Below are positions 1,610-18,877 of a stretch of 64,000 nucleotides of DNA, one piece after another. The notes beneath the pieces are model-generated. The model did not search any database. It had not been told where the DNA came from and saw only the letters and a list, made by a program, of their open reading frames with translations. Made by a program: the position numbers and the translations under genes. Source of the stretch: Verrucomicrobiota bacterium (GTDB lineage: Bacteria; Verrucomicrobiota; Verrucomicrobiia; Limisphaerales; UBA11358); assembly GCA_050015635.1 (NCBI GenBank), contig JBEKBA010000008.1, positions 15,091 to 79,090 on the forward strand, written 5' to 3'. Position 1 is the first letter of the stretch. The number at the start of each line of letters is the position of its first letter.

Positions 1610-1617
1610 TTTGCCGG

Positions 1618-4148: not shown

Positions 4149-4230
4149 CTGAACCCGCCGCGCGTCCGGCGCACAACTAAATTTCCACGCCGGTGTTTGA
4201 ATTTGGGCTGGCGCAGGGTATATTGGAAAC

Positions 4231-5169
4231 ATGAAGCTCGCCGTAAAAGTTGCGATTTGCCTCGCGGGCGGATTGGCGTTGAACGCCGGTTTGCGCGCGG
4301 CCGATGTCGTGTTGACAAACATGACCGACAATCCCTACGCACCTATTGTCATTCGGAATGTTTTCGGTTTGAACCCGCCGCCGCCGCCCGTCGCGCCGGT
4401 CAAAGACGACGAACCACTGCCGAAAATCACACCCAACGGCATCATGTCCATTTTCGGGCGGTTACAGGTGCTGTTCAAAGTGGACAGCGTGGCCAAGCCG
4501 GGGAAACCGTCCGAGGAGCAATCTTACATCCTCACCGAAGGCCAGCAGCAGGACGACATTGAAATCGTGAAGATCTCTGAAAAGGCGGCCAAGGTGACGT
4601 TCAACAATCACGGCACCATTCAGGAAATAGCCCTGAACGCTGATGACAATACGCCCGCATCCGGAACCACCATGAGTCCCTATCCTCCGAACGAACCCGG
4701 ACACCACCGGTTTGGTGGACGATTCAGTAATCGTGGCTGGAAAAGCGGTTCACCCGGCCCGACGTTCGGAGACTATTCCCCGCCCCCCGGTCAACAGCCC
4801 ATGAGTCAACCGTCCGGCAATCAACAGCCTGACGGTCAACAGCCCAACAGTCAATACCCCGGCAATCAACCGTTCGGCAGTCAACAGCCCAACGATCAAC
4901 AGCCTTACAGTCCGTATGCTACGCCGCAAAATCCCCTGGCCGGCCAGATACCCCCGGGTATGACACCGGAGGAACAAACCGTTGAAATCGAAGCGAATCG
5001 CGAAGCGACCAAACAGCAGGTTATGGATGGAACGATGCCGCCACTTCCCATCACAGAGGTGACGCCGTCCGACGCCGTTGGTCCCGGCGGCAACCCTGTG
5101 TTTGAAAACGGCAATAATCCAATGGGGGACGGCGATACGTCAGGGAATGGCGATACGCCTCCACAATAG
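4231..5169 (+). CDS. Secreted hypothetical protein with P/Q-rich low-complexity repeats
   Basis: Signal peptide MKLAVKVAICLAGGLALNAGLRA. The central region has reiterated GQQP/NQQP/SQQP units. No recognisable catalytic motif. Confidence 0.55.
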   Translation: MKLAVKVAICLAGGLALNAGLRAADVVLTNMTDNPYAPIVIRNVFGLNPPPPPVAPVKDDEPLPKITPNGIMSIFGRLQVLFKVDSVAKPGKPSEEQSYILTEGQQQDDIEIVKISEKAAKVTFNNHGTIQEIALNADDNTPASGTTMSPYPPNEPGHHRFGGRFSNRGWKSGSPGPTFGDYSPPPGQQPMSQPSGNQQPDGQQPNSQYPGNQPFGSQQPNDQQPYSPYATPQNPLAGQIPPGMTPEEQTVEIEANREATKQQVMDGTMPPLPITEVTPSDAVGPGGNPVFENGNNPMGDGDTSGNGDTPPQ

Positions 5170-5272
5170 CTTGAGCATCTGGAAAGATGCCGCGCCTGCG
5201 GCGAGGCGGGTGGTGCATCAAAAACGTGGCGGGATTGACACCTCCTGAAGCGCCATTAACATTCCTTTGGCC

Positions 5273-5347
5273 GGCGTGTTCGTCTATCGGTTAGGACGCT
5301 GGATTCTCAATCCGGAAAGACGGGTTCGATTCCCGTACGCGCTACCA
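5273..5347 (+). tRNA. tRNA-Glu (anticodon CUC)
   Basis: Manual cloverleaf: acceptor GGCGTGT/ACGCGCT, D arm GTCT-ATCGGTTA-GGAC, anticodon arm CTGGA-TTCTCAA-TCCGG (anticodon CTC), variable AAAG, T arm ACGGG-TTCGATT-CCCGT, discriminator A and encoded CCA. Length 75 nt. Confidence 0.85.
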
Positions 5348-5417
5348 CTTCCGAAAGTTGAAAGATGAACGTTGAATGTTGAGCGGCTTGGGTTCAACGT
5401 TCAATTTTCAATCAATC

Positions 5418-5780
5418 ATGTTTCAGATCATCTTTACTCCGGCCAGCGCCGCCGAACTCGGGCGGATGCCAAAAGAACTCCAGTTGCAAATACTCGGTGA
5501 GTTTCGCGGTTTGCCGCAACAGGTGCTGGGCACGGAACTGGACGCGTTCGGCAAACTGGAGCTGGCCGGACGGACGTTGCACCGCTTTCGCGTGGGGGAT
5601 TATCGCGTTTATTTCGAGCGGCATGATCTGGGTGTGCTGGTGCATCGCATCTTGAGCCGGCACACCTTGAAGGATTTCCTGTTCCGTTCCGGCCTGAAAT
5701 CCGGCGAGGACCAAACCCTTCAGGAAAATCCGAAATTCTGGGAATTGATCGCGTCGGCAAAGACCTCCGCCAAGGCATAG
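5418..5780 (+). CDS. RelE/ParE-superfamily toxin-like protein with C-terminal extension (no adjacent antitoxin ORF)
   Basis: MFQIIFTPASAAELGRMPKELQLQI...LHRFRVGDYRVYFERHDLGVLVHRILSRH has the RelE/ParE signature (xRxRVGDYRxxY...I.HR). ATG at 5418. Only the tRNA lies upstream. Confidence 0.6.
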   Translation: MFQIIFTPASAAELGRMPKELQLQILGEFRGLPQQVLGTELDAFGKLELAGRTLHRFRVGDYRVYFERHDLGVLVHRILSRHTLKDFLFRSGLKSGEDQTLQENPKFWELIASAKTSAKA

Positions 5781-5799
5781 AAAATAACCGAGTGCCGGG

Positions 5800-5985
5800 T
5801 TAACCGCCAAGGCAGCGTGACGGTGCACCCAATTATAGAAGATAATCAGGGACGCGGTGGAAGTCCTTGCGGACGGCCAATGCGCCTGACGGCGCGGGAA
5901 TGGGGAAAAAGAAAAATAGACACGGATTAACACGGATGGAAACACCTCTCCCCGACCCTCTCCCCAGAGCGGAGAGGGAGAGTAA
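5800..5985. repeat. Mosaic cluster of short palindromic repeat modules (BIME-like)
   Basis: Order: TTAACCGCCAAGG; GCAGCGTGACGGTGCACCCAATTATAGAAGATAATCAG; GGGACGCGGTGGAA fused to GTCCTTGCGGACGGCCAATGCGCCTGACGGCGCGGGAATGGGG; AGACACGGATTAACACGGA; CTCTCCCCGACCCTCTCCCCAGAGCGGAGAGGGAGA. Each module recurs many times in the window. Confidence 0.85.
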
Positions 5986-6015
5986 AGCATCCTCGCAGCA
6001 AGCTGCCAGGCATTC

Positions 6016-6177
6016 TCAGAATCTGAACTCGATCTGCCCTTTGTGCAGTTGATGATAATCTCGACCCGCTCCCTGTCCTTTGACGCATTCGGCTATCACT
6101 TTCTCACTCCCATGCTGCCCCACCGTATTCACAAAATACCCGTTGCCCCAAAACTCTCCTCCCCACAACTTATTTTT
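6016..6177 (-). pseudogene. Remnant (C-terminal ~53 codons) of an IS200/IS605-type Y1 transposase TnpA
   Basis: KNKLWGGEFWGNGYFVNTVGQHGSEKVIAECVKGQG resembles the conserved TnpA C-terminus (xxFWxxGYFxxTVG...I..Y). The N-terminal HUH part is missing and the upstream part of the ORF is unrelated. Confidence 0.55.
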
Positions 6178-6223
6178 GACCCCAGGCACTCGGACAACCT
6201 TCGCAGGCGTGGTCTGGGGGCGC

Positions 6224-6487
6224 TCAGCTTCGCTTGTAAATTTCGCGGCGATGGCCGAGGTAGTGAAGATCAATGCGGCCAAGTTTCAAATCGAATTCAT
6301 AAAGCACGCGGTAGTCGCCGACTCGGAGTTTGAATTCAGGACGGCCTTGCAGCCGTTTGTGCGGGAAATTTTCAAGCCGCGTCCCCATTTCATCAATCTC
6401 GCGCTGGACGGTCTCGCGAATGCCGGAGGGCAGGTCGTCAAACGCTTTTGAAAATGTGGGCGACAAGATTTGGAGCGCAGCGGCCAC
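6224..6487 (-). CDS. relE: RelE/ParE family type II toxin
   Basis: ...RLQGRPEFKLRVGDYRVLYEFDLKLGRIDLHYLGHRREIY is the RelE/ParE core motif. GTG start lies 4 nt after the stop of the upstream antitoxin ORF. Confidence 0.8.
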   Translation of the reverse strand: MAAALQILSPTFSKAFDDLPSGIRETVQREIDEMGTRLENFPHKRLQGRPEFKLRVGDYRVLYEFDLKLGRIDLHYLGHRREIYKRS

Positions 6488-6490
6488 AGT

Positions 6491-6685
6491 TCATTGGGGC
6501 TGGCGGGTCGTGTAATTGCCTTCAGCGATTTCGCGGCGCGATTGGTCGAGCTTGGCCTTCACTTCGTCGGTGAGTTCAAGCTGGTCTTCGAGAAAATCGT
6601 CAATCCACGCGCGAACTTCTTCAATTTCAGCGCGTGAGAGCTTTGGAATGACTGCTTCAATTTCTTGAACCGAACTCATGGTCAT
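6491..6685 (-). CDS. Putative addiction-module antitoxin
   Basis: A 64 aa acidic helical protein (SVQEIEAVIPKLSRAEIEEVRAWIDDFLED...) directly upstream of and near-abutting the RelE/ParE toxin. Confidence 0.7.
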   Translation of the reverse strand: MTMSSVQEIEAVIPKLSRAEIEEVRAWIDDFLEDQLELTDEVKAKLDQSRREIAEGNYTTRQPQ

Positions 6686-6817
6686 AAAGATAACCCAGCT
6701 TAAACAAACGGCAACTCCGCAATTTCACCGGATTTTCGCCTGCCGCCCTCGTCCCGCAGGCTTCGCCCATTGGATGCCAGGCCCGGCAATCTTTAGTAGT
6801 TGCCTTTCAACTTTTTA

Positions 6818-6968
6818 CTGGCGGTGCGGCCACCATAAAAAGAGACACGGATTAACACGGAAAAGGATTAAACCGCCAAGACGCCAAGAGCGCCAAGGCA
6901 GCGTGACGCTGCACCCAATTATAGAAGATAATCAGGGACGCGGTGGAACGCGTCCGTACCATGATAAA
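6818..6968. repeat. Mosaic repeat cluster ending in a G-REP hairpin
   Basis: ctggcggtgcggccaccataaaaagagacacggattaacacgg...aaccgccaagacgccaagagcgccaaggcagcgtgacgctgcacccaattatagaagataatcaGGGACGCGGTGGAACGCGTCCGTACCatgataaac. Confidence 0.85.
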
Positions 6969-7028
6969 CTTGTTCTTTGCAGACGCTGCTTGCACCGAAA
7001 ACAGCGGCGTTTATGATTTCGCACGATC

Positions 7029-8576
7029 ATGAAACTGAAGCGGTCATCGCTGGTTTCCCAAGGGTCACTGAACCGCATACTTGAAGCGGTCAACGAGTCC
7101 TGGAAACGGCTTGATTTTCAGACGGCCATCGAGTTGATGGAACGCGCCAGCCGGCTGGACCCGGCCAATGCCGTCATCCTGTTGGATTTGGGTCGCATGC
7201 ACGGGCTGCGTCACGACCCTGCCGCCGCCGAGCGCTGTTTTGAAAAGGCGGTTCGAATCGCGCCCAAAAAATCCGAGGCGCTCGCGACAGCGGGAAAGCA
7301 AAGCCGTGATTTTGGCAACTTTGCGATGTCCGAGCGTTACTACCTGCGCGCCGTGGAACAAAAGGACGTCACGCCCGAAACCCTCGTCAAATTGGCGGAA
7401 AATTATGAGCGTCTCCGCCGTTTGGAGGACGCCGCCCGATTGGTGGAACGGGCGCTGCATGTGGATGGCGGCTGCGCGGCGGCGTTGCTGCTGTCCGCCA
7501 GGCTCAACCGGCAGTCCGGCCGGTTGGACGAAGCGGAACGGCTGCTCCGATCCATTCCAACCCACTCCGAAAATAACACACGCGCGCAGAGTTGGTATGA
7601 ACTGGGTGGAATTCTTGACCGGCAAGGGCGTTATGACGAAGCCATGTCCGCCTTCCTTGAAGCCAAGGCATTGTTGAATCCCCATGCGGGGCGTTTTCTC
7701 ACTGAACTAAAAATTATCCGCCAGCGCATCACGGCCATGCAGGCAAATATGTCCGCCGAAATGTTGCAACGCTGGTTTGATTTTGGCCGGACGCTACAAC
7801 CCTCCCGGCGGCTGGCGTTGCTGGGAGGTCATCCCCGTTCCGGCACCACTCTGCTGGAGCAGGTTTTGGATTCGCACCCGGACATCGTCTCGGTGGAAGA
7901 AACGACGATTTTTTACGATGACGCCTACCATCCTCTCACGCGCAATTTGCCGGATGACGAACCCATGCTGTCGGTTCTCGAAGCCGCGCAGACTGATGCC
8001 TTGCAACAATCGCGCGCCCACTATTTTCGTTCCGTGGAAGGATTCCTCGGTCAGCCCATCGGCAACCGGCTGTTGATTGATAAAAATCCCTCCCTGACTT
8101 TTTTAATTCCGCTCCTCATCCGCATTTTTCCAGAAATAAAACTGCTCATCGCCCTGCGCGACCCGCGGGATGTGGTTTTAAGTTGTTTCATGCAGCCTTT
8201 GCCGCTCGATCAGGGCAGCTCGGCCTATTTGAGCCTGAAAAGCACCGTTGAAGAATACAGCACGATGATGAGCCTGTGGCAAACCCTTGCGCAATTGATA
8301 AAAAACCCGTTCCTCGAAGTGCGCTACGAGGACATGGTCAATGATCTGGAATCCGTGGCGCGGCGGTCATTAGACTTTCTGGGCGTGCCGTGGGACGCCC
8401 GCGTGTTGGCCTTTGACGAACATGCGCGGCAGAAAGTGGTGCGCTCCCCGACTTACGCCGACGTGACCAAACCGGTCTATAAAGGCGCGGTTGGCCGGTG
8501 GCGGCATTACCAGAAATATCTGGAACCGCATCTGGAAAAGCTGGAGCCGTTCGTCAAGGCGTCCGGGTATGAATAG
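7029..8576 (+). CDS. TPR repeat + sulfotransferase fusion protein, paralogue 1 (ST1)
   Basis: The N-terminal ~230 aa carry TPR-like repeats. The C-terminal half has the PAPS 5'-phosphosulfate loop LGGHPRSGTTLLEQ and the 3'-phosphate motif LIALRDPRDVVLSCF. 515 aa. Confidence 0.9.
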   Translation: MKLKRSSLVSQGSLNRILEAVNESWKRLDFQTAIELMERASRLDPANAVILLDLGRMHGLRHDPAAAERCFEKAVRIAPKKSEALATAGKQSRDFGNFAMSERYYLRAVEQKDVTPETLVKLAENYERLRRLEDAARLVERALHVDGGCAAALLLSARLNRQSGRLDEAERLLRSIPTHSENNTRAQSWYELGGILDRQGRYDEAMSAFLEAKALLNPHAGRFLTELKIIRQRITAMQANMSAEMLQRWFDFGRTLQPSRRLALLGGHPRSGTTLLEQVLDSHPDIVSVEETTIFYDDAYHPLTRNLPDDEPMLSVLEAAQTDALQQSRAHYFRSVEGFLGQPIGNRLLIDKNPSLTFLIPLLIRIFPEIKLLIALRDPRDVVLSCFMQPLPLDQGSSAYLSLKSTVEEYSTMMSLWQTLAQLIKNPFLEVRYEDMVNDLESVARRSLDFLGVPWDARVLAFDEHARQKVVRSPTYADVTKPVYKGAVGRWRHYQKYLEPHLEKLEPFVKASGYE

Positions 8577-9010
8577 TCACGAAGCAGCGTGACGGTGCAC
8601 CCAGTTATAAAACAGACACGGATTGGAACGGATGAACACGGATAAAAATAAGAAGGTATTTGGCGTGGACGCGTGAAATGTAGAAGGAAGAATGATGAAT
8701 GAAGAGTAGATAAAAACGGGAAGGCGGCCCATAGCGAGACGCCCGCGCTCCCCAAACGCAGTAGAGAAATGCACCTGAACGGTGCGGGGATGGGGGATAG
8801 GGTCCAGGAAATCGGGAAAAGGAGAAATCAGACACGAATTACGCGAAAGAAAACGAAGCATTTTTAGACACGGATTAACACGGAAAGGGATTTAACCGCC
8901 AAGAACGCCAAGGCACCTGGCGGTGCGGCCACCATAAAAAGAGACACGGATTAACCGGATGGAAACACCTCTCCCCGACCCTCTCCCCAGAGCGGAGAGG
9001 GAGAAGAAAA
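8577..9010. repeat. Mosaic repeat cluster; first ~288 nt duplicated at 16943-17230
   Basis: 8577-8864 aligns with 16943 onward with 10 substitutions (manual alignment). It is followed by AGACACGGATTAACACGGA, AACCGCCAAG and CTCTCCCC...GGAGAGGGAGA modules. Confidence 0.85.
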
Positions 9011-9039
9011 ATTAACCGCCTGATGTGTCGTTTATGTAA

Positions 9040-9369
9040 TCAATTCAATTCCAGCAGCCAGGCAATTTTATCGCGCACGGCCAAAGTTACTCTAGTTTCA
9101 AACTGTCCGGCACGACGTTCCAGCCGGTGATTTTCAACCGAGGCAAGACCCTGGACATTCGCCACGCCTTCATCCGCGCCGGGCAACCAGCGCACGCGCG
9201 GCAACTTCACTTCATAATCACCACCACGAATCTGCGTCGTCAACGGCACGCACACGCATAAGGCGCGCTCCGCGTCCGGATCTTCGCGCGAGACTACCAT
9301 CAGCGGGCGCAGCTTGCCCTTCAGTCCCAGATCCACCCAATATACTTCACCAGGCTTTGGATTTATCAT
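9040..9369 (-). CDS. mazF: MazF/PemK family type II toxin (endoribonuclease)
   Basis: MINPKPGEVYWVDLGLKGKLRPLMVVSRED...CVPLTTQIRGG...VANVQGLASVENHRL is the PemK/MazF pattern (GxxxxVdf...RPxxVvs...vxPxTt). ATG at 9369 is preferred over 9471. Confidence 0.85.
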   Translation of the reverse strand: MINPKPGEVYWVDLGLKGKLRPLMVVSREDPDAERALCVCVPLTTQIRGGDYEVKLPRVRWLPGADEGVANVQGLASVENHRLERRAGQFETRVTLAVRDKIAWLLELN

Positions 9370-9565
9370 AGAAACTTTCCAGCGTGGCGGCGCGCAGTTC
9401 CCAGACTCCGGCGGGCGATTCCATCTTTTCCGGCACGGTGATTTTCGGCGCAGGCATGACCCACCAGCCACCGTTCTCCATCGTTACCAGATACTTTGCG
9501 CCTTTGCGCGTGCCCCGGATGCAGACGCGGCCTTTGTCATCGGCTTTTACCAAAGTAGTTTCCAT
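9347..9565 (-). CDS. mazE: AbrB/MazE/SpoVT-type antitoxin
   Basis: METTLVKADDKGRVCIRGTRKG... looks like a swapped-hairpin-type DNA-binding N-terminus. The 3' end overlaps the mazF start by 23 nt. Confidence 0.7.
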   Translation of the reverse strand: METTLVKADDKGRVCIRGTRKGAKYLVTMENGGWWVMPAPKITVPEKMESPAGVWELRAATLESFYDKSKAW

Positions 9566-9648
9566 GTGGGAACATTCCCACCTTTCGTTGCCATTGTCAA
9601 CGGCTTAATGCTTGAGAGTTGAAGGTGCCGAATACAGCCGGAGGAAAT

Positions 9649-9712
9649 GGGACGCGGTGGAACGCGTCCTTACCATGTCAAATTTTGGTAAGGACGACTT
9701 CCACGTCGTCCC
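9649..9712. repeat. REP doublet: two G-REP hairpins in inverted (tail-to-tail) orientation
   Basis: GGGACGCGGTGGAACGCGTCCTTACC - atgtcaaatttt - GGTAAGGACGACTTCCACGTCGTCCC. The loops are reverse complements (GTGGAA/TTCCAC). The stems differ by compensated changes. Confidence 0.85.
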
Positions 9713-9876
9713 TAATTCGTTTTTATTTTCAAACGTGGTGATTTTTGGGGTATTGCAGCGTTGCTGCAGCCGGGCTGCAGTGCTGCGGCAATGAGATGGC
9801 AGCGTTCACACGCCCCGCCATTGGTTGCCATCTTATACTGCTTGCGCAAAAAACTTCAGGGTCTAATTTTCCATTG
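9687..9876 (+). promoter_or_regulatory. Conserved structured 5' leader of ST2 (leader family shared with ST4 and ST5)
   Basis: REP hairpin + T-rich tract; then hairpin H1 at 9752-9792 (ATTGCAGCG..CTGCAG-CCGGG-CTGCAG..CTGCGGCAAT); hairpin H2 at 9794-9833 (AGATGGCA/TGCCATCT); then TATACTGCTTGCGCAAA and ATG at 9877. Confidence 0.6.
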
Positions 9877-11418
9877 ATGAGACGACTGCAGTTAGTTTCC
9901 CAGGGTTCCTTGAGCCGGATGATCAAGGCGGCGGATGAATCCTGGGGACGTGGCGACTCCCGGCAGTGCTTTGAGCTGCTGGAACGCGCCAGCCGGCTGG
10001 ACCCGGGCAATCCCAAAATGCAGCTGTATCTGGGTCAGCGGTATGGGTTGCGTTACAACTACGAGGCAGCCGAACACTGCTTTGAACAGGCCGTGCGGAT
10101 TGCACCGGATAAAACGGAGACTTTGGCCATTGCCGGGCGGCTATCCCTCGATTTCGGCAGTCATCAAATGGCCGAAGATTATTTCCGGCGCGCCGTGGAA
10201 GAAAAAGACGCCCCGGCGGAAACCTGCGCCCGACTCGCGGAAGTTTATGAACGCCTTAATCGCTTGGAAGACGCCACCAAACTGGTGGATCAAGCCTTGC
10301 AATTGGATGACAACTGCGCCATGGCACAACTGACCCGTGCCAGATTATATGGCCGCACCGGTCGATTGAAGGAAGCGGAACAACTTCTGCGGAGGTTTAC
10401 CACAACCGATTCGCATACGCAGATACGTCGCCATTACGAACTGGGCAAAAATCTGGACCAGCAAGGACGTTATGACGAAGCGATGGCCGCGTTCCTCGAA
10501 GCCAAGGCGCTCTTACTGCCAACCGCGAAACCGCTCATCGCTCAAATGAAGGTGTTTCGTGACCGCCTAAATGAATTGAAAACCAACATCTCTGCTGAAA
10601 TACTGCAACGTTGGTTTGATTGCGCCCCGGCGTTCCGACCCTCTCATCGCCTGGCTTTTCTGGGCGGTCATCCCCGTTCCGGGACAACCTTATTGGAACA
10701 GATTTTGGATTCGCATCCAGACATCGTTTCGGTGGAAGAAACGGCGATTTTTCTCGAAGACGCCTGTGTTCCCTTCAAACGCGGCTTTCCAGAGAATACA
10801 CCCACATTGTCAATCCTTGAAACGGCACAGACGAGCGCATTGCAGACATCGCGCATGAATTATTTCCGCTCCGTGGAAGGATTTCTGGGCAAACCCATCG
10901 GCAACCGGCTGTTGATTGACAAAAATCCTTCGCTGACTTTTTTGATACCCGCGCTCATCCGCGTGTTTCCTGAGGTAAAACTGATCATCGCCCTGCGCGA
11001 TCCGCGTGACGTATGTTTGAGTTGTCTCATGCAACCCTTGCTGCCACTCCGTCAGGGCAACTCGGCCTATTTGAGTCTGGAGAGTACCGTTGAGGAATAC
11101 AGCGCCATGATGAGCCTGTGGCAAACCCTCGCTCCCCTGATAAAGAACCCGTTCCTGACCGTGCGCTACGAGGACATGGTCAATGATCTGGAATCCGTGG
11201 CGCGGCGGACACTGGACTTTCTGGGCGTGCCGTGGGATGCAAGCGTGCTCAGTTTTGACCAACACGCGCGGCAGAAAGTGGTGCGCTCGCCCACTTACGC
11301 CGACGTGACCCAACCGGTCTATAAAGGGGCCATTGGCCGGTGGCGTAATTACCAGAAATATTTTGAACCGCATCTGGAAAAGCTTGAGCCGTTTGTGAAG
11401 GCGTTCGGGTATGAGTAA
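9877..11418 (+). CDS. TPR + sulfotransferase fusion protein, paralogue 2 (ST2)
   Basis: MRRLQLVSQGSLSRMI... aligns with the ST1 start. Motifs LGGHPRSGTTLLEQ and IIALRDPRDVCLSC are present. The TTG-initiated upstream extension (9745) is judged non-coding. Confidence 0.88.
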   Translation: MRRLQLVSQGSLSRMIKAADESWGRGDSRQCFELLERASRLDPGNPKMQLYLGQRYGLRYNYEAAEHCFEQAVRIAPDKTETLAIAGRLSLDFGSHQMAEDYFRRAVEEKDAPAETCARLAEVYERLNRLEDATKLVDQALQLDDNCAMAQLTRARLYGRTGRLKEAEQLLRRFTTTDSHTQIRRHYELGKNLDQQGRYDEAMAAFLEAKALLLPTAKPLIAQMKVFRDRLNELKTNISAEILQRWFDCAPAFRPSHRLAFLGGHPRSGTTLLEQILDSHPDIVSVEETAIFLEDACVPFKRGFPENTPTLSILETAQTSALQTSRMNYFRSVEGFLGKPIGNRLLIDKNPSLTFLIPALIRVFPEVKLIIALRDPRDVCLSCLMQPLLPLRQGNSAYLSLESTVEEYSAMMSLWQTLAPLIKNPFLTVRYEDMVNDLESVARRTLDFLGVPWDASVLSFDQHARQKVVRSPTYADVTQPVYKGAIGRWRNYQKYFEPHLEKLEPFVKAFGYE

Positions 11419-11420
11419 GG

Positions 11421-11670
11421 GGTAGGGACGACCTGCTGGTCGTCCCGAGGTAGGGCGTTGCTGCTGCAACGCCGTTCGGACGCGCGGCATCCGCCTTCGC
11501 CCGAGCTATGGCGGGACAGGGCGCGTCCCTACCATGCCGTTCCCAATTCGATTGAAAAAGGAAACACAACCTGCCGGTCGTCCAAAGGTAGGGCGTTGCT
11601 GCTGCAACGCCGTTCGGACACGCGGCATCCGCCTTCGCCGAGCTATGGCGGGACAGGGCGCGTCCCTACC
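11421..11670. repeat. Two copies (one full, one 5'-truncated) of a ~113 nt composite palindromic element (R2) with GGTAGGGACG/CGTCCCTACC termini
   Basis: Unit 1 is 11421-11533 and unit 2 is 11571-11670. A third full copy lies at 13273-13387. The unit contains GTAG-hairpins GGGACGACC-TGCT-GGTCGTCCC and GGCGTTGC-TGCT-GCAACGCC. Confidence 0.85.
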
Positions 11671-11722
11671 CTTTGCAGAGACTGCTTGCGCAAAGGGCAT
11701 CGGCCTCTAAAATTTTCCACGG

Positions 11723-13270
11723 ATGAAACGACCGCAGTTGGTTTCCGCCGGTTCCTTGAACCGGATGATTCAGGCCGCCGAGGAGTGCTGCATGCGCGGT
11801 GACTTTCAACAAGGCATCGAAATTTTCGAACGGGCCAGCCGTCTGGATCCAGCCAACTGGCGGCTCCGGATTCAGTTGGGGCGCGCTCACGGTTATAATT
11901 TCGACTACACGGCAACCGAACGCTGTTTTGAACAGGCGGTGCGCATTGCACCGCATAAAGCGGAGGCCCTGGCGACTGCGGGGCAGCAATGGATGAGTTC
12001 CGGCAGACCGCAAATGGCCGAAGCTTACTTCCGGCGCGCCCTGGAACAAAAAGACGCCACGGCGGACACCGTCGCCCGGCTGGCGGAACTCTACGAGCGG
12101 CTTCACCGCACGGAAGATGCCGCCGCCATGGTGGAGCGCTGCCTTCAATTGGACAACGCCTGCCCGTTGGCCCGGTTCACCCAAGCAAAATTGCACCGGC
12201 AGGCGGGGCGACTGGCCGAAGCTGAACAAGTCTTGCGCCCCATCCTGACGACGGTAGATCGCGAGTTGCGAGTCCGGGGCCTCTATGAACTGGGCGGGAT
12301 TTACGACCGGCAGGGGCGTTATGACGAAGCCATGACCGCCTTTCTCGAAGCCAAGGCGCTGCTGCTTCCGGACGCACCGCCATTGCTCGCCCAATTGCAA
12401 TCAATCAACAGTTACTTTAAGGAGATGCAAAACAACGTCTCGGCTGAACTGTTGCAGCGTTGGTCCGATTCCGGCCGGGAGCTACTTCAACCACCTCATC
12501 GTCTGGCCTTTCTGGGCGGCCATGCCCGTTCCGGGACAACTTTTTTGGAACAGGTGCTCGATTCACATCCGGACATCGTCTCAGCGGAAGAAACAAGTAT
12601 TTTTTTTTACAAGACCTACCTTTCTCTCACGCACAGTATGCCACCGGGCACATCCATGCTGGCGGCACTCGATACCGCGCCCGTTGCGTCGTTGCGGCAG
12701 GCTCGTGAACACTATTTTCGTTCGATGGAATTGTTCTTTGGCAACCCCATCGGCCATCGCCTGCTGATTGACAAAGATCCCAACTATCAAATTATGATCC
12801 CGGCTTTTGTCCGCATTTTTCCGGAAATAAAACTTTTGTTGGCGATCCGCGACCCGCGCGATGTCGTCTTGAGCTGTTTCGTCCTGCCGCATTGGCCCCT
12901 CCGCGCGGCCACCGTGACCTTTCTGAATCTTGAAGCCACGGTTAGATCCTATACCCGGGTGATGGGGATATGGAGGACGCTAAAGCCGCTGATCAAAAAT
13001 CCCTGTCTCGAAGTGCGCTACGAAGACATGGTGGACGATCTGGAATCCGTCGCGCGGCGGACTCTGGACTTCCTCGGCATGCCGTGGGATGCCCGCGTGC
13101 TCGCCTTTGACGAACATGCCCGGAAAAAGCTGGTGCGCTCCCCGACTTACGCCGACGTGACGCAGAAGGTTTATAAGCGCGCCCGGGGGCGCTGGCACAA
13201 TTACAAAAAATATCTCGAACCGCATTTGGAGAAACTGGAGCCGTTCGTCAAGGCGTTTGGGTATGAGTAA
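11723..13270 (+). CDS. TPR + sulfotransferase fusion protein, paralogue 3 (ST3)
   Basis: 515 aa with motifs LGGHARSGTTFLEQ and LLAIRDPRDVVLSCF. Its closest relative is the decayed copy ST5. Confidence 0.9.
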   Translation: MKRPQLVSAGSLNRMIQAAEECCMRGDFQQGIEIFERASRLDPANWRLRIQLGRAHGYNFDYTATERCFEQAVRIAPHKAEALATAGQQWMSSGRPQMAEAYFRRALEQKDATADTVARLAELYERLHRTEDAAAMVERCLQLDNACPLARFTQAKLHRQAGRLAEAEQVLRPILTTVDRELRVRGLYELGGIYDRQGRYDEAMTAFLEAKALLLPDAPPLLAQLQSINSYFKEMQNNVSAELLQRWSDSGRELLQPPHRLAFLGGHARSGTTFLEQVLDSHPDIVSAEETSIFFYKTYLSLTHSMPPGTSMLAALDTAPVASLRQAREHYFRSMELFFGNPIGHRLLIDKDPNYQIMIPAFVRIFPEIKLLLAIRDPRDVVLSCFVLPHWPLRAATVTFLNLEATVRSYTRVMGIWRTLKPLIKNPCLEVRYEDMVDDLESVARRTLDFLGMPWDARVLAFDEHARKKLVRSPTYADVTQKVYKRARGRWHNYKKYLEPHLEKLEPFVKAFGYE

Positions 13271-13272
13271 GG

Positions 13273-13387
13273 GGTAGGGACGACCTGCAGGTCGTCCCGA
13301 GGTAGGGCGTTGCTGCTGCAACGCCGTTCGGACGCCCGGCATCCGCCTTCGCCGAGCTATGGCGGGACAGGGCGCGGCGTCCCTACC
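13273..13387. repeat. R2 composite palindromic element, third copy
   Basis: Near-identical to 11421-11533 and begins 3 nt after the ST3 stop, exactly as unit 1 does after the ST2 stop. Confidence 0.85.
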
Positions 13388-13398
13388 ATGATAAACCT

Positions 13399-13609
13399 GG
13401 TAAGGACGACTTCCACGTCGTCCCTAATTCGTTTTTATTTTCAAACACGGTGATTTTTGGAGAATTGCAGCGTCGCTGCAGCCGGGCTGCAGTGCCGCGG
13501 CAATGAGATGGCAATCCGCGGCAATGAGATGGCAATCAGGTTTTACGCCTCGCCATGGGTTGCCATCTTATACTGCTTGCGCAAAGAGCATCGCCTTCTA
13601 AAATTGTCC
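13399..13609 (+). promoter_or_regulatory. Conserved structured 5' leader of ST4
   Basis: Same architecture as 9687-9876: REP hairpin 13399-13424 + TAATTCGTTTTTATTTTC, H1 at 13464-13504, 21-nt tandem duplication at 13496-13537, H2 at 13527-13568 (AGATGGCAA/TTGCCATCT), then TATACTGCTTGCGCAAAG. Confidence 0.6.
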
Positions 13610-15160
13610 ATGATGAGACGAACACCAATAACTTCTCCGGGTTCGTTGAAGCAGCTGCTCCAGGCGGCGGAAGCGGCACGCGAACGCATGGATTTTCAGA
13701 CGTGTATCAAGACGCTGCAAACAGCCAGCCGTCTCGCGCCTGCCAACGTCGGCGTTCTCCTCCAACTCGGCCGCATTCATGGGTTGCGCTACGACTATAC
13801 CGCCGCTGAACGCAGCTTTGAACAGGCTCTGCGTTTTGCTCCCCGGAAAACGGAGATGCTCACGGCCATTGCGGAGCATTGCCAGAATTTCCGCAACCCG
13901 GACATTGCGGAGCGTTATCTCCGGCGCGCGCTCGAACAGCCGGACGCGACGCCGCAGGCCTGCATCAAGCTCGCCGAACTTTGCGAACGGCTCCGGCGGC
14001 TGCCCGAGGCTGAGGAACTGGTGGAACGGGCGTTGAAGCTTGATCCGGCTTATCCGGCGGCGCTGCTGGTTCGCGCCCGACTGGAACGTCTGTCCGGGAG
14101 ACTGGAACCGGCGGAGGCCGTGCTGCGCTCGTTCATCACCCAACCCATTCCTAATACCTGGATTCATGCCCAAGCCTGGTATGAACTGGGCCATACTCTG
14201 GATCGTCAGGGAAAATTTGATGAAGCGATGACGGCATTCCTTGAAGCCAAGACCTTGCAGCGACCACAGGCGGACAAAATATTTGACGCCCAAAAAATAA
14301 TACAAACCAGTTACAAGGTGATGGAATCGAATATTTCCGCCGGGCAATTCCGACGCTGGTTCGAAAACGGCCCGGCATTGTCACCGGCCCGACGAGTTGC
14401 CTTGCTCTGCGGTTACGCCCGTTCCGGCACAACCCTGCTGGAGCAGGTGCTGGATGCCCATCCGGACATTATTTCAGCGGAAGAAACCACCATTTTTTTG
14501 GACGATGCCTTTGCCCCGCTCAGACGAAATTCGCCCCCGAACTCCGACATGCTGACGGTTCTGGAAACCGCCGACAACCCGGCGTTGCAGCAATCGCGCG
14601 CGGCTTATTTTGACTCCATGAATTTGTCCATCGGGAGCGCCGTCGCCAACCGGCTGTTGCTGGACAAAAACCCCATGTTCACCGGCATGATCCCGGCGTT
14701 CATCCGCATCTTTCCCGAAACCAGGTTTCTCATCGCCTTGCGCGACCCGCGCGACGTGGTCTTGAGTCGTTTCATGCAAGCCCTGCGGACGACCCCATTC
14801 ACCACGGCCTTTTTGAGCCTGGAAGGAACCGTAGAAGATTACGCCGTCATGATGAGCGCATGGAGGAAAATGGCGCCGCTGATGCCCGCTCCTTACCTGC
14901 CAGTGCGTTACGAAGACATGGTGGACGATTTGGAATCCGTCGCGCGCAAAACACTGGATTTTCTGGGTGTTACCTGGGTAAACCACGTGCTGGGGTTTGA
15001 TGAACATGCCCGAAAAAAACTGGTGCGTTCCCCCGCCTACTCCGATGTGACCCAGCCCGTCTATAAGCGCGCCCGGGGGCGCTGGCGCAATTACCAGAAA
15101 TTTTTGGAGCCGCATCTGGAAAAGCTGGAGCCGTTTGTGAAGGCGTTTGGATATGAATAG
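13610..15160 (+). CDS. TPR + sulfotransferase fusion protein, paralogue 4 (ST4, most divergent)
   Basis: MMRRTPITSPGSLKQLL... aligns with the other starts. Motifs CGYARSGTTLLEQ and LIALRDPRDVVLSRF are present. ATG at 13610 is preferred over the TTG at 13457. Confidence 0.88.
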   Translation: MMRRTPITSPGSLKQLLQAAEAARERMDFQTCIKTLQTASRLAPANVGVLLQLGRIHGLRYDYTAAERSFEQALRFAPRKTEMLTAIAEHCQNFRNPDIAERYLRRALEQPDATPQACIKLAELCERLRRLPEAEELVERALKLDPAYPAALLVRARLERLSGRLEPAEAVLRSFITQPIPNTWIHAQAWYELGHTLDRQGKFDEAMTAFLEAKTLQRPQADKIFDAQKIIQTSYKVMESNISAGQFRRWFENGPALSPARRVALLCGYARSGTTLLEQVLDAHPDIISAEETTIFLDDAFAPLRRNSPPNSDMLTVLETADNPALQQSRAAYFDSMNLSIGSAVANRLLLDKNPMFTGMIPAFIRIFPETRFLIALRDPRDVVLSRFMQALRTTPFTTAFLSLEGTVEDYAVMMSAWRKMAPLMPAPYLPVRYEDMVDDLESVARKTLDFLGVTWVNHVLGFDEHARKKLVRSPAYSDVTQPVYKRARGRWRNYQKFLEPHLEKLEPFVKAFGYE

Positions 15161-15362
15161 TCACGAAGCAGCGTGACGGTGCTTGCGCACGGCCAATGCG
15201 CCTGACGGCGCGGGAATGGGGAAAAAGAAAAAGAGACACGGATTAACACGGAAAGGGATTTAACCGTCAAGGCAACGTGACGCTGCACCCGATTATAGAA
15301 GATAATCAGGGAAGCGGTGGAAGTCCTTGCGGACGGCCACCAGTCCCTACCCTGTCATACCT
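15161..15362. repeat. Mosaic repeat cluster downstream of ST4
   Basis: tcacgaagcagcgtgacggtgc (same junction as after ST1 and ST5), then CGGCCAATGCGCCTGACGGCGCGGGAATGGGG, AGACACGGATTAACACGGA, AACGTGACGCTGCACCCGATTATAGAAGATAATCAG, and GGGAAGCGGTGGAAGTCCTTGCGGACGGCCACCAGTCCCTACC. Confidence 0.85.
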
Positions 15363-15486
15363 GGTAAGGACGACTTCCACGTCGTCCCTAATTCGTTTTT
15401 ATTTTCAAACACGGTGATTTTTGGAGAATTGCAGCGTCGCTGCAGCCGGGCTGCAGTGCCGCGGCAATGAGATGGCAATCTCACTG
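15363..15486 (+). promoter_or_regulatory. Conserved 5' leader of ST5 (shortened version)
   Basis: Identical to the ST4 leader through H1 (15428-15468) and GAGATGGCAATC. The 3' arm of H2 and the TATACT/TTGCGCAA segment are missing, and the leader is fused to the ATG at 15487. Confidence 0.55.
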
Positions 15487-16942
15487 ATGAAACGACCGCA
15501 GTTGGTTTCCGCCGGTTCCTTGAACCGGATGATTCAGGCCGCCGAGGAGTGCTGCATGCGCGGTGACTTTCAACAAGCCATCGAAATTTTCGAACGGGCC
15601 AGCCGGCTTGATCCAGCCAACTGGCGGCTCCGGATTCAGTTGGGGCGCGCTCACGGTTATAATTTTGATTACGCGGCAGCCGAACGCTGCTTTGAACAGG
15701 GGGTTCGCATTGCACCGCATAAAGCGGAGGCGCTGGCATCTGCCGGGCGGCTCTCCATTGATTTCGTACGTCATCAAATGGCCGAAGATTATTTCCGGCG
15801 CGCCCTGGAACAAAAAGACGCCACGGCGGACACCGTCGCCCGGCTGGCGGAGCATTACGAACGCCTGCACCGCGCGGAGGAAGCCGTCGCCATGGCCGAA
15901 CGCGCCCTGCAACTGGACAACGCCTGCCCTTTGGCCCGGCTCACCCGGGCAAAACTGCACCGGCAGGCGGGGCGACTGGCCGAAGCTGAACAAGTCTTGC
16001 GCCCCATCCTGACGGCAGCGGATCGCGAGTTGCGAGTCCGGGGCTTCTATGAACTGGGTGGGATTTACGACCGTCAAGGGCGTTATGACGAAGCCATGAC
16101 CGCATTCTTTGATGCCAAGGCGCTGCTGCTTCCCGACGCGCCGCCGTTGCTCGCCCAATTGCAATCCATTATCAGCTACTTGAAGGAGATGGAAAATGGC
16201 GTCTCGGCGGAACTGTTGCAGCGTTGGTTCGATTTTGGCAGGGAACTGCAACCACCTCATCGTCTGGCTTTTCTGGGCGGCCATGCCCGTTCCGGGACGA
16301 CCCTGCTGGAACAGGTTTTAGATTCACATCCGGACATTGCCTCGGCGGAAGAAACCAGTATTTTTTACAACCAAGCCCAGGTTCTTCTCACGCGCGGCTT
16401 GCCGCAAGGCACGCCCATGGTGGCGGCGCTCGACAGCGCGCCCGTCGAGTCGTTGCGGCAGAGCCTTGATTATTGCCTTTGTCCGGTTCTTTCCGGAAAT
16501 AAAGCTTTTGGTGGCATTGCGGGATCCGCGCGATGTGGTCTTGAGTTGTTTCATGCAACCACATTGGCCCCTCGGTACAGGCAACGTGACCTTTCTGAAT
16601 CTTGAAGCCACAGTCAGAACCTACGCCCGGGTGATGGGGATATGGAGGACGCTAAAGCCGCTGGTTAAAAACCCGTTCCTCGAAGTGCGCTACGAGGACA
16701 TGGTGGACGATCTGGAATCCGTGGCACGACGGACGCTGGATTTTCTGGGCGTCCCGTGGGATGCGCGTGTGCTCGCCTTTGACGAACATGCGCGGCAAAA
16801 ACTGGTGCGCTCGCCGACTTACGCCGATGTGACCCAGCCCGTCTATAAGCGCGCCCGGGGCCGTTGGCACAATTACCGGAAATATCTGGAACCGCATCTG
16901 GAAAAGCTTGAACCCCTGGTCAAGGCGTTCGGGTATGAATAG
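15487..16942 (+). pseudogene. TPR + sulfotransferase paralogue 5 (ST5), disrupted by an internal deletion/frameshift
   Basis: Two ORFs (15421-16605 and 16337-16942) together align with ST3. Between ...SLRQ and FPEIK, ST3 has 120 nt and ST5 has 31 nt, a net 89-nt loss that shifts the frame and removes the YFRS...LLIDK(N/D)P segment. Confidence 0.8.
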
Positions 16943-17437
16943 TCACGAAGCAGCGTGACGCTGCACCCAATTATAAAACAGACACGGATTGGCACGGATG
17001 AACACGGATAAAAATAAGAAGGTATTCGGGGTGGACGCGTGAAATGTAGAAGGAAGAATGATGAATGAAGAGTAGATAAAAACGGGAAGGCGGCCAATAG
17101 CGAGACGCCCGCGCTCCCCAAAAGCAGTAGAGAAATGCACCTGAACGGTGGGGGGATGGGGGATAGGGTCCAGGAAATCGGGAAAAGGAGAAATCAGGCA
17201 CGAATTACACGAAAGAAAACGAAGCATTTTAATTTAGACACGGATTACACGAATTAACACGGAAGGATTTAACCGCCAAGACGCCAAGAACGCCAAGGCA
17301 AAACGAATTGAAGTGGGACGCGGTGGAACGCATCCCTACCATGAAATCAATGCGCCTGACGGCGCCGGGGTGGGGATCACGGACGCCGCATCCATCGTCG
17401 CCAAGGCTATGACGGGACAAGGCGCGGCGTCCCTACC
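16943..17437. repeat. Mosaic repeat cluster; first ~288 nt duplicate of 8577-8864
   Basis: See 8577-9010. It continues with the G-REP GGGACGCGGTGGAACGCATCCCTACC (17315-17340) and an R2-related half-unit ending GGCGCGGCGTCCCTACC (17437). Confidence 0.85.
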
Positions 17438-17438: not shown

Positions 17439-17816
17439 TTACGATATGATTTCAACGGCGCGATGTGAAATGCGCGAGTCAAATGTTGCCAGTCTCATCT
17501 GGTGTGCCGCGGCCAATTCGGCAAGATAAAAATCGGTCACCTGTTCCGAGTTGTGTGCGGAACTTTTCAAAGCATTCAGGTCATCCGGCAGAAAAAGAGA
17601 TTTGTAGCGGGAAATAAAATCACTCAATGCCTCCCGCGCGACCGGCATGGGAACACCGTAAATTTTGGGATGGGTGACAATTCTCAAGAAGCCGGTTTCA
17701 CAAAGCGGACAAGTGGCCAATGATTTTCCAGCCAGCCATTTATCAGCGGCGGCATATTGTGTATGCGAATCCAAAATCGCCGCAATCAGAAAATTTACGT
17801 CGAGAAGGTATCTCAT
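17439..17816 (-). CDS. vapC: PIN-domain toxin (VapC-like)
   Basis: MRYLLDVNFLIAAILDSH... is the PIN N-terminal acidic motif (LLDxN). 125 aa, with a 4-nt overlap with the upstream antitoxin ORF. Confidence 0.8.
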   Translation of the reverse strand: MRYLLDVNFLIAAILDSHTQYAAADKWLAGKSLATCPLCETGFLRIVTHPKIYGVPMPVAREALSDFISRYKSLFLPDDLNALKSSAHNSEQVTDFYLAELAAAHQMRLATFDSRISHRAVEIIS

Positions 17817-18070
17817 GGCAGGCCGGCCAGAGCCGCACGAACCTGCTCCGTTGTGACCGCCGGGCCGCCGGTAAGAATGGAATGCTTCCCTCTGCGTCTT
17901 AACAGACGAATTTGATGCCGGTGCGGTTTTGGCTTTTCAAGGCGCACCAGGATCAGCCGGCCATCGCCATCCGGTTCAACGGAGACAACGTCGCCTGTGT
18001 CAATATGAGCCTGTTTGCGGGCCTTGGCCGGAATGACCATCTGGCCGCGACCATAAATTGTCGCATGCAT
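17813..18070 (-). CDS. vapB: AbrB/SpoVT-type antitoxin (VapB-like)
   Basis: MHATIYGRGQMVIPAKARKQAHIDTGDVVSVE... is the AbrB/MazE-like looped-hinge motif. ATG at 18070 is preferred. Confidence 0.75.
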   Translation of the reverse strand: MHATIYGRGQMVIPAKARKQAHIDTGDVVSVEPDGDGRLILVRLEKPKPHRHQIRLLRRRGKHSILTGGPAVTTEQVRAALAGLP

Positions 18071-18148
18071 GGGCCAAACATAACGCAAGCATTGCTTACA
18101 TACAACAAAAGAATTGATGCCGCGCCTATGGCGCTGAGAAAGAAGTTT

Positions 18149-18242: not shown

Positions 18243-18650
18243 TTAAAGCAGACCGCGATGAATCAATTCATCGGCCAGCATTTTCGGCGAAACAATCTTC
18301 ACACCTTGAACTGTTTTGCCAAAATACACACCAAAGTCCTGCTGATCACCGGTGAGCAGATGGGTTGCGCCTCCGGCAACGGCCCCGCCCAGAATCGGAA
18401 CATCCTTCAACGGCAATTCCACTTTCAAATCAGTAACGAGGGCGGGAACCCATTCACATTTTCCGATCAAAGAATCCAGATGGCGCAATGCCGCGGGGAA
18501 TTTTACCTCAAGATTCCGGCGCGCCTCCTCGACGGCGTAGGCACTGGTGATGCACCCGCCATGTTTGAACAACACCTTTAAAAAGGCGCGCATCCGGCTT
18601 TGCAGTGGCGCGCCGGAAAAGAGAATGTTCGCATCCAGAAACACCCTCAT
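18243..18650 (-). CDS. PIN-domain protein (toxin of a second PIN/AbrB pair)
   Basis: MRVFLDANILFSG...HLLTGDQQDFG is PIN-like (FLDANIL start and a conserved late acidic residue). It overlaps the upstream antitoxin ORF by 4 nt. Confidence 0.7.
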   Translation of the reverse strand: MRVFLDANILFSGAPLQSRMRAFLKVLFKHGGCITSAYAVEEARRNLEVKFPAALRHLDSLIGKCEWVPALVTDLKVELPLKDVPILGGAVAGGATHLLTGDQQDFGVYFGKTVQGVKIVSPKMLADELIHRGLL

Positions 18651-18877
18651 TTCTTGAACTTCAAGCGGGACAACGCCTCGTCGTTATTGCGGTTGAATTC
18701 GGCCAGCCGCTTTTCGGTGTAGATTTCCAATGGAAAAGTGACACCCGAACGCAACAGGATGCCTTCGCTAGTTTCCTCGGCGACAACCTGCCCGGCGCTT
18801 TTGAGACCAAGCCTTTGCCGCAATAATTTGGGAAGCGTGAGCGTTCCCCGTTCATTGACGTTGATGACCTTTGTCAT
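18647..18877 (-). CDS. AbrB/SpoVT-type antitoxin
   Basis: MTKVINVNERGTLTLPKLLRQRLGLKSAGQVV... is an AbrB-like motif (G.lt.Pk..R..lgl..G). 76 aa, directly upstream of the PIN gene. Confidence 0.7.
   Translation of the reverse strand: MTKVINVNERGTLTLPKLLRQRLGLKSAGQVVAEETSEGILLRSGVTFPLEIYTEKRLAEFNRNNDEALSRLKFKK

Follow-up and report, generated by a model that had tools for sequence, protein, structure and literature searches.

Here we report that a 64-kb stretch of DNA from an uncultured Verrucomicrobiota bacterium (64,000 nucleotides of contig JBEKBA010000008.1 in assembly GCA_050015635.1, hereafter the window) carries a tandem array of genes whose products very probably combine tetratricopeptide repeats (TPR) with a sulfotransferase domain of the tyrosylprotein sulfotransferase (TPST) type. 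To the fuller proposition, that these enzymes act on proteins and that PEP-CTERM and other secreted proteins encoded next to them are the likeliest acceptors, we give an even chance. The open reading frame (ORF) listing contains five genes with TPR and Sulfotransfer_3 domains on one strand, starting at 7029, 9877, 11723, 13610, and 15487 and referred to below as ST1 to ST5. Pfam assigned TPR families to the first ~230 amino acids (aa) of all five copies and, in the final ~260 aa of ST1 to ST4, both PF13469 (Sulfotransfer_3; E values of 1e-30 to 1e-35, 108 to 121 bits against a cutoff of 27) and Sulfotransfer_1. An earlier interpretation made without database searches (the sequence-only reading) had described five TPR-sulfotransferase fusions; its domain assignment was borne out by these profile searches, by alignment, and by the predicted fold, and its gene starts are correct, but ST5 proved to be a pseudogene. 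Four genes are therefore intact, namely, ST1 (7029 to 8576, plus strand, 515 aa), ST2 (9877 to 11418, plus strand, 513 aa), ST3 (11723 to 13270, plus strand, 515 aa), and ST4 (13610 to 15160, plus strand, 516 aa), the last being the most divergent paralogue.

The assignment to the TPST type comes from both sequence and fold. Among solved structures, the catalytic half matched tick TPST and human TPST1/2 best (E values of 1.6e-17 to 1.7e-13; 5e-17 to 4e-13 for ST1), followed by weaker matches to the CurM sulfotransferase (8e-7), SULT4A1 (7e-4), and the heparan sulfate 3-O-sulfotransferase HS3ST (4e-3). The sequence-only reading had placed these domains among the cytosolic-type sulfotransferases, a classification that was discarded since the scores for TPSTs are better by a factor of at least 10^10. 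Known structures were searched with an AlphaFold2 model of ST1 (pLDDT of 87.6, pTM of 0.84) using Foldseek, which retrieved TPST1/2 with TM-scores of 0.59 to 0.70 on the target at 22 to 26% identity, followed by Stf9, while the TPR half of the same model matched the TPR domains of SPINDLY (SPY) and O-GlcNAc transferase (OGT). The segments GGxPRSGTTL, EET, RDxRxxxxS, and RS...KP...W and the DKNP lysine all align to TPST1/2 and are invariant in 20 family members, as are R270-T274 and R377...S385. Residues R270, E291, K352, and S473, also invariant in the family, align with the catalytic residues of the TPSTs (R78, E99, K158, and S285 in TPST2), and the 21 residues from R270 to E291 equal the spacing that separates the P-loop arginine of TPST2 from E99. 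Both motifs for the cofactor 3′-phosphoadenosine 5′-phosphosulfate (PAPS), i.e., the 5′-phosphosulfate-binding (5′-PSB) and 3′-phosphate-binding (3′-PB) motifs, were found in every copy, as had been claimed; however, ST4 reads CGYARSGTT at the first of them and not the GGH(P/A)RSGTT that had been given for all five. PAPS is made in the cytoplasm. Because the N termini of the ST proteins are hydrophilic and without a transmembrane segment, their only hydrophobic stretch being a core element of the catalytic fold, the enzymes should be cytoplasmic.

We then turned to the genes that surround the array, using a set of 75 loci with one genome per GTDB species, or 76 with a locus from a closely related strain (L001). 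A short way downstream of the array lies the sole PEP-CTERM-like ORF of the window (19820 to 20437, minus strand; PF07589 score of 31 bits, with a cutoff of 20.7), a finding that makes questionable the earlier statement that no obvious acceptor is encoded nearby. ORF clustering over all loci placed this gene in a syntenic frame present in 16 Limisphaerales-type loci, with a gene for a 312-aa secreted Pro/Gln-rich protein upstream (4231 to 5169, plus strand, in the window) and the PEP-CTERM gene and its partner, encoding a 232-aa secreted protein (20482 to 21180, minus strand), in convergent orientation downstream. Library scans returned no family match for these two conserved secreted neighbours. 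While two PIN-type toxin-antitoxin (TA) pairs, a transposase-like gene, and dispersed repeats separate ST5 from the PEP-CTERM gene in the window, the corresponding gap is just 0.3 to 0.7 kb in loci L002, L004, and L021. In distant lineages, too, PEP-CTERM genes flank TPR-sulfotransferase genes, and the two are often interleaved on one strand (as PEP-ST-PEP-PEP-ST in Oceaniferula, as PEP-ST-PEP-PEP in Phycisphaeraceae, and in Pirellulales and others). The Pfam motif was detected in 9 of 10 neighbours tested, six of them above the gathering cutoff. Under a null of within-locus randomisation, 36% of PEP-like ORFs lay less than 300 bp from an ST gene compared to 8% expected, and in loci beyond the inherited synteny block the distance had a median of 437 bp versus 3366 bp, a proximity reached in none of 200 permutations. 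Since PEP-CTERM genes adjoin ST genes across two phyla, Verrucomicrobiota and Planctomycetota, their products are candidate targets of the enzymes. The neighbouring PEP-CTERM proteins are acidic and Ser/Thr-rich, have a tyrosine content of 3.8% versus 2.5%, and in some cases contain YDD-type motifs. In the cultured Oceaniferula spumae NT6N (NZ_AP026866.1, 1229384 to 1250871), five genes are packed on one strand as PEP-ST-PEP-PEP-ST, and the two middle PEP-CTERM paralogues contain AYNY(A/D)Q(N/G)YDDR motifs resembling sites of tyrosine sulfation. Secreted neighbours without a PEP-CTERM motif in loci L002 to L044 (for example, positions 10580 to 11257 in L002 and 11792 to 16240 in L037) and in the window (20482 to 21180) end in conserved C-terminal sequences such as ...NW(V/Q)(Q/E)TLP or ...FYRLxxP/Q, tails that may represent an undescribed terminal motif or sorting signal.

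Taken together, these features point to a soluble cytoplasmic enzyme in which an N-terminal TPR superhelix (approximately aa 10 to 240) is joined to a PAPS-dependent domain of the TPST type. PAPS would be bound by the 5′-PSB loop (GGxPRSGTT, with R270) and the 3′-PB motif (R377...S385), Glu291 of the EET motif would act as general base on the acceptor hydroxyl, and K352 and S473 would assist. As in OGT and SPINDLY, a protein or peptide acceptor could dock in the TPR groove through an extended segment, and the likeliest acceptors would be precursors of the adjacent surface and secreted proteins, namely, PEP-CTERM proteins along with partner proteins, that would be sulfated prior to export. Use of PAPS, a protein (tyrosine) acceptor, and the identity of that acceptor are our inferences. 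That the acceptor is a protein or peptide at all seems to us an evenly poised question, and that it is a PEP-CTERM protein specifically we propose only tentatively. The sequence-only reading had also suggested protein acceptors, and the TPST-like catalytic domain together with the OGT/SPY-like TPR makes this plausible. A bolder version, on which we place rather little confidence, would make these enzymes the dedicated cytoplasmic protein sulfotransferases of the Planctomycetes-Verrucomicrobia-Chlamydiae (PVC) group, the TPR groove of each paralogue recognising one class of PEP-CTERM or secreted precursors whose tyrosines or other hydroxyls would be sulfated before export. If so, protein sulfation would be a widespread bacterial surface modification, with one enzyme per substrate class and expandable arrays.

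A number of points weigh against protein sulfation by these enzymes. Sulfotransfer_3 also holds enzymes that sulfate polyketides, glycolipids, and sugars, and given this diversity an identity of 22 to 26% to TPSTs does not fix the acceptor. T293 aligns with Arg101 of TPST2, an acceptor-peptide binding element along with the backbone-pairing strand at 198-200, and acceptor contacts are not obviously conserved. No PAPS-synthesis gene was present among the window ORFs scanned, and the literature searched held no biochemical data on any member of the TPR-sulfotransferase family. Across the neighbouring PEP-CTERM families no conserved tyrosine was found. In the lineage of the window the PEP-CTERM gene is convergent, not co-directional, with the array, and overall 16 of 47 PEP-like ORFs lie on the strand of the nearest ST gene. 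Such genes are, moreover, abundant in these phyla (the adjacency null was calculated within loci). PEP-CTERM proteins carry Sec signal peptides, so sulfation would putatively have to take place in the cytoplasm, prior to export.

Adjacency to PEP-CTERM genes fits a protein and a glycan acceptor alike. The enzymes might instead sulfate a glycan or glycolipid, such as an exopolysaccharide or a lipid-linked precursor of the PEP-CTERM/exosortase system, the TPR serving as a tethering scaffold and the paralogues differing in sugar or position specificity; we consider this possible although somewhat unlikely. PEP-CTERM systems are classically tied to exopolysaccharide production, and there are fold matches to Stf9 and a weak match to the Nod-factor sulfotransferase NoeE (E value of 1e-8). 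The TPR halves gave sub-threshold matches to PrsT, a TPR protein of the PEP-CTERM system, and to polysaccharide-export TPR proteins, but the PrsT matches reflect generic TPR (57 bits against a cutoff of 312). Scores of carbohydrate sulfotransferases were at least 10^10-fold worse than those of TPSTs. Next to the array there are no genes for a glycosyltransferase, flippase, polymerase, or export, nor did any stand out among the recurrent neighbours of related loci. The sequence-only reading had already noted that PAPS-synthesis genes and a glycosyltransferase cluster are missing, which holds for the window ORFs scanned. Pfam and NCBIfam scans of window ORFs likewise revealed no exosortase (Xrt/EpsH), which may be encoded elsewhere in the genome. 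It is the similarity to TPSTs and the lack of glycan-synthesis neighbours that lead us to favour protein over glycan acceptors. Sulfation of a small molecule, as by the CurM/OLS domains, with a coincidental neighbourhood, appears very unlikely: after the TPSTs these domains rank next among solved relatives (E value of ~1e-6), yet that similarity is far weaker than to TPSTs, no polyketide synthase, nonribosomal peptide synthetase, or other biosynthetic genes occur in the window or recur in related loci, and the TPR fusion suggests macromolecular partners.

The divergence of the paralogues was examined with per-segment Nei-Gojobori estimates. Between clades, aa identity was 46 to 60% in the TPR segment, 49 to 74% in the N-terminal catalytic segment, and 74 to 93% over the last ~90 codons. 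These last codons had been described as nearly invariant, also at the nucleotide level; protein conservation there is indeed strong, whereas nucleotide identity reaches only 72 to 90% with a synonymous divergence (dS) of 0.4 to 1.6. For most pairs, dS was ~1 to 2 in all segments including the C-terminal one, where the exceptions were ST1-ST2 (0.41) and ST1 or ST2 versus ST5 (0.64 to 0.71), and the ratio of nonsynonymous to synonymous divergence (dN/dS) was 0.05 to 0.33 throughout. Because dS stays high in the last ~90 codons, the conserved C terminus reflects stronger constraint on the protein and not nucleotide homogenisation. Gene conversion of the 3′ ends was excluded for most pairs on the same grounds (dS of ~1), and no sign of diversifying selection on the TPR was seen, its dN/dS of 0.22 to 0.30 equalling that of the N-terminal catalytic part. 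The idea of a variable TPR module on a constant catalytic module is only half right, since aa 296 to 345 and 389 to 425 of the catalytic half vary as much as the TPR between paralogues. Both sub-regions align with TPST segments around the acceptor site, and the stretch aligned to the TPST acceptor strand (aa 389 to 405) is among the most variable regions; the conserved parts are the PAPS-binding motifs, the catalytic motifs, and the C-terminal ~90 residues. When positions conserved in a clade-specific manner were sought, only four strong sites emerged.

In a neighbour-joining tree, ST1, ST2, ST3/ST5, and ST4 formed four distinct clades, and every clade also included genes from other genomes. 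Orthologues of all four types are present in other Limisphaerales-like metagenome-assembled genomes (MAGs), and L002 carries ST1-, ST2-, and ST4-type genes in identical order. Because each of the four clades has orthologues elsewhere, the paralogues of the array are old and have undergone differential loss, with duplication and decay now and then, and do not stem from a recent burst of duplication. The portrayal of the family as rapidly duplicating was therefore not upheld: the clades are partly collinear between genomes, their dS is saturated, selection is purifying, and ST3/ST5 is the sole close, young pair (dS of 0.27 in the TPR part). ST1, ST2, ST3/5, and ST4 are ancient paralogues under purifying selection that presumably differ in acceptor preference, with a copy number that may shift slowly through unequal crossover at hairpin repeats; short conversion tracts and occasional decay, as in ST5, occur as well.

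ST5 (15487 to 16942, plus strand) is an ST3-type copy with patches derived from ST2, ST1, and ST4. Its 1456 nt are not a multiple of three, and the nucleotide alignment shows a single 89-nt gap directly after position 16474, a deletion that removes the segment YFRS...LIDKNP...IP with the conserved DKNP lysine and shifts the frame, splitting the PF13469 match over two ORF fragments. As there are no stop codons beyond those produced by the frameshift, ST5 is a recently inactivated pseudogene. When runs of shared variable sites were tested by permutation, ST5 had tracts in common with ST2 (alignment nt 290 to 324, p = 0.0005), ST1 (nt 1285 to 1314, p = 0.0025), and ST4 (nt 1446 to 1476, p < 0.0005), and these mosaic patches result from short-tract gene conversion.

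Recombination at the locus, which had been proposed from the sequence-only reading, is supported by these tracts and by a strain with ~99%-identical flanks that differs in gene content, with breakpoints in shared repeats. This strain (L001, a JGI metagenome contig) is 98 to 99% identical to the window over positions 1 to 9626 and 17439 to 18126. Its array consists of ST1 (97% identical), the pemK pair, ST2 (95.6%), ST4 (98.5%), a second ST4-type gene (~80%), and a gene for a 651-aa membrane and TPR protein; ST3 and ST5 are both missing. The spacer between its ST2 and ST4 is a hybrid, mostly of the intergenic region IG2 and ending in the ST4-proximal part of IG3, the product expected from unequal crossover between repeats common to IG2 and IG3. 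L001 is thus independent evidence for a tandem array at this locus, with content that differs between strains, and array turnover is real but modest.

An assembly artefact affecting part of the array, especially ST5 as a chimeric join of strain variants that would leave at most four true copies, is improbable in our view. ST5 is indeed flanked by repeats that it has in common with ST1 and with ST4 and is itself mosaic, and neither an exact-protein lookup nor two exact DNA searches of metagenome contigs recovered ST3 or ST5 from another assembly. The sole contig with an identical ST1, 5 kb long, ends directly after ST2, and the nearest strain carries a different array. Nevertheless, ST1 to ST4 are only 55 to 70% identical to each other in nucleotide sequence, making mistaken collapse or duplication impossible, and the independent L001 assembly likewise shows four copies in tandem at this locus. 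Long-read MAGs commonly show such arrays, and ST5 differs from ST3 by ~12% with substitutions of its own, far above the 1 to 2% strain divergence of the flanks.

The flanks of the genes had been described as shuffled in modules, and alignment confirmed all three groups: a 3′ flank shared by ST1 and ST5, a 3′ element shared by ST2 and ST3, and a 5′ leader shared by ST2, ST4, and ST5. The first (8577 to 8912, with its copy at 16943 to 17288) is common to both genes as claimed, albeit longer than the ~288 nt reported, extending over 348 nt at 92.8% identity. The second is a GC-rich hairpin module of the repetitive extragenic palindromic (REP) type, present as two tandem copies 3′ of ST2 (11419 to 11670; fold z-score of about -4) and as a third copy 3′ of ST3 (13271 to 13390); segments 11419 to 11536 and 13271 to 13390 are 95% identical, and the second tandem copy lies at 11566 to 11670. 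The copy at 13271 to 13390 is a likely substrate for unequal crossover removing or adding ST3. The third, a 138-nt leader repeat, occurs upstream of ST2 (9664 to 9801), ST4 (13377 to 13513), and ST5 (15343 to 15480) in copies that are 91 to 97% identical, and parts of it recur at 18975 to 19020 and 24084 to 24120. From TTG starts (MENCSVAAAGLQCRGNEMAI...), the leader repeat reads open and in frame with ST2 (9745 to 9876), ST4 (13457 to 13609), and ST5 (15421 to 15486). The extension of ST2 from the upstream TTG at 9745 through the REP module is probably spurious, and database homologues of 555 to 567 aa probably carry the same REP-derived N-terminal extension.

These modules form strong GC-rich hairpins (fold z-scores of -3.3 to -4.1), and a 21-nt palindrome core occurs five times in the window compared to zero in shuffles. 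Rather than being specific to the array, the same short modules recur at about a dozen further sites of the window (5.8 to 25.7 kb and near 42.7 to 43.0 kb); they are dispersed repeats resembling REPs or miniature inverted-repeat transposable elements. The only Rfam match was a tRNA-Glu, so the reading of the shared 5′ leader as a riboswitch or other known RNA was rejected, and promoter and terminator scans gave no signal above shuffled background. The REP-associated tyrosine transposase (RAYT)-like gene mentioned above (19075 to 19689, minus strand) matches NF047646 with an E value of 1e-18 at 67.7 bits, below the 80-bit cutoff. It is bordered by modules at 18929 to 19020 and 19597 to 19737 that are the same as those in the array spacers, and is probably the source of the dispersed repeats.

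The array also hosts TA genes. A mazEF pair had been reported between ST1 and ST2; its toxin gene is indeed of the PemK/MazF family (9040 to 9471, minus strand; PF02452, E value of 9e-12, 45.6 bits against a cutoff of 23.1) and occupies the same position in L001 and L077, whereas the 72-aa ORF that overlaps it upstream (9347 to 9565, minus strand) is presumed to be an antitoxin by position only and has no Pfam, NCBIfam, or PADLOC match. Further genes of this kind are a weak ParE-like ORF (5376 to 5780, plus strand), a ParE toxin gene (6224 to 6487, minus strand), a PIN toxin with its antitoxin (17439 to 17816 and 17813 to 18088, minus strand), and a second TA pair (18243 to 18650 and 18647 to 18877, minus strand). 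Following the Rfam-predicted tRNA-Glu(CTC) at 5273 to 5347, the ~20 kb from 5376 to 25711 are unusually dense in REP-type repeats and type II TA genes. Together with an HNH gene, the tRNA, and the RAYT-like gene in and around the array, the ParE, PemK, and PIN toxins could suggest a defence or mobile island in which the ST proteins counter phages. We regard this as highly improbable because the array and its secreted neighbours are syntenic in many genomes without these insertions, the GC content is that of the rest of the window, and the TA and REP elements appear to have inserted secondarily into a locus that is otherwise syntenic. Membership in a known defence system was set aside, the ST proteins matching no PADLOC family.

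The rest of the window is housekeeping in character (fmt, adk, pstSCAB-phoU, miaB, bipA, and trpA). Two genes more than 25 kb from the array relate to carbohydrates: a mannose-1-phosphate guanylyltransferase gene (manC, 43135 to 44286, minus strand) and a 2903-aa gene (49272 to 57983, minus strand) with glycosyltransferase family 2, glucoamylase-like, and glycoside hydrolase family 94 domains, a combination typical of cyclic beta-1,2-glucan synthases. Closer to the array lies a gene for a 637-aa protein (25840 to 27753, plus strand) with C-terminal TPRs and a hydrophobic N-terminal domain of ~400 aa for which no family or PDB match was found. A 34%-identical paralogue lies directly after the ST array in L001 (18820 to 20775). 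The protein may be another TPR-coupled envelope enzyme, and it may resemble TMTC/PMT-type glycosyltransferases.

The window genes are ordinary members of a large annotated but uncharacterised family. A word-indexed search retrieved at least 6,600 matches at E <= 1e-10, mostly from Verrucomicrobiota MAGs and annotated just as "sulfotransferase" or "TPR repeat protein" in their sources, and an exhaustive search of 50%-identity cluster representatives retrieved 3,787 at E <= 1e-30 that are mostly full length. The family is found mainly in Verrucomicrobiota and Planctomycetota. Neither is the layout unusual or unique: 26 of the 76 loci carry two to four copies within ±10 kb, and several genomes contain multiple loci. 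Three metagenome proteins, with gene calls and source organisms as deposited, combine four (P0127), three (P0169), and two (P0142) Sulfotransfer_3 domains with interleaved TPR blocks in single polypeptides. Such fused arrays of two to four units hint that neighbouring units work together. TPSTs are homodimeric, and by analogy with them and with the fused polypeptides, neighbouring paralogues may act as hetero-oligomers.

As an instance of a multi-copy family whose turnover is slow and repeat-mediated, the array itself is ordinary, and its interest lies in the family. A family of thousands of TPST-like members with OGT-like docking domains, located beside PEP-CTERM genes in two phyla, is a testable candidate for protein-tyrosine sulfation in bacteria and for the modification of PEP-CTERM surface proteins. 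If the acceptor were a glycan, soil and aquatic Verrucomicrobiota and Planctomycetota would have in this family a major, so far unassigned source of sulfated polymers at their surface. As a cultured carrier, O. spumae NT6N offers the best experimental entry point. Literature searches returned nothing relevant on TPR-sulfotransferase fusions or on a link between PEP-CTERM proteins and sulfotransferases; the literature searched holds no published account of the TPST-type nature of the family or of its cross-phylum association with PEP-CTERM genes, and the earlier statement that no characterised system has this layout agrees with our literature and database searches.

With regard to known systems, the window genes belong to the database family "tetratricopeptide repeat-containing sulfotransferase" (TPR with PF13469), a name that is annotation only. 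CurM/OLS, Stf9, and NoeE/NodH are of the same PAPS-dependent superfamily; however, they act on polyketide, glycolipid, or Nod-factor acceptors, are not fused to TPR, and score far more weakly. OGT and SPINDLY share the overall plan of an N-terminal TPR superhelix that docks proteins followed by a C-terminal group-transfer domain, but theirs is a GT-B glycosyl or fucosyl transferase domain unrelated to sulfotransferases, making the likeness one of analogy and not of enzyme homology. To our knowledge, and as far as the literature searches turned up, RaxST is the only bacterial protein-tyrosine sulfotransferase. The best match to the catalytic half in both sequence and fold remains animal TPST1/TPST2 (PDB 5WRI and 3AP1; tick TPST, 8W5Z), which has in common with the family the 5′-PSB motif GGxPRSGTTL, the glutamate of EET, the lysine of (N/D)K(D/N)P, the 3′-PB motif RDxRxxxxS, and the C-terminal RS...KP...W. 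In contrast to the TPSTs, which are type II membrane proteins of the Golgi lumen without TPR, the members of the family are predicted to be soluble, lack the type II membrane anchor, have an N-terminal TPR in its place, and are only 22 to 26% identical to them. RaxST of Xanthomonas oryzae is a cytoplasmic, PAPS-dependent tyrosine sulfotransferase that modifies RaxX before export (PMC4646787, PMC4216712). Compared by description only, the likeness is that the enzyme would act on a secreted protein encoded next to it; unlike the family, RaxST has no TPR and is single-copy, its operon also encoding a type I secretion system. Genes for partners of the RaxST-RaxX type (ABC-peptidase, membrane fusion protein, and raxA/raxB-like) were not found near the array among the window ORFs scanned, where the neighbours are PEP-CTERM proteins and secreted proteins of the Sec type. 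RaxST is nonetheless the sole established precedent for the logic of an enzyme encoded beside its precursor substrate.

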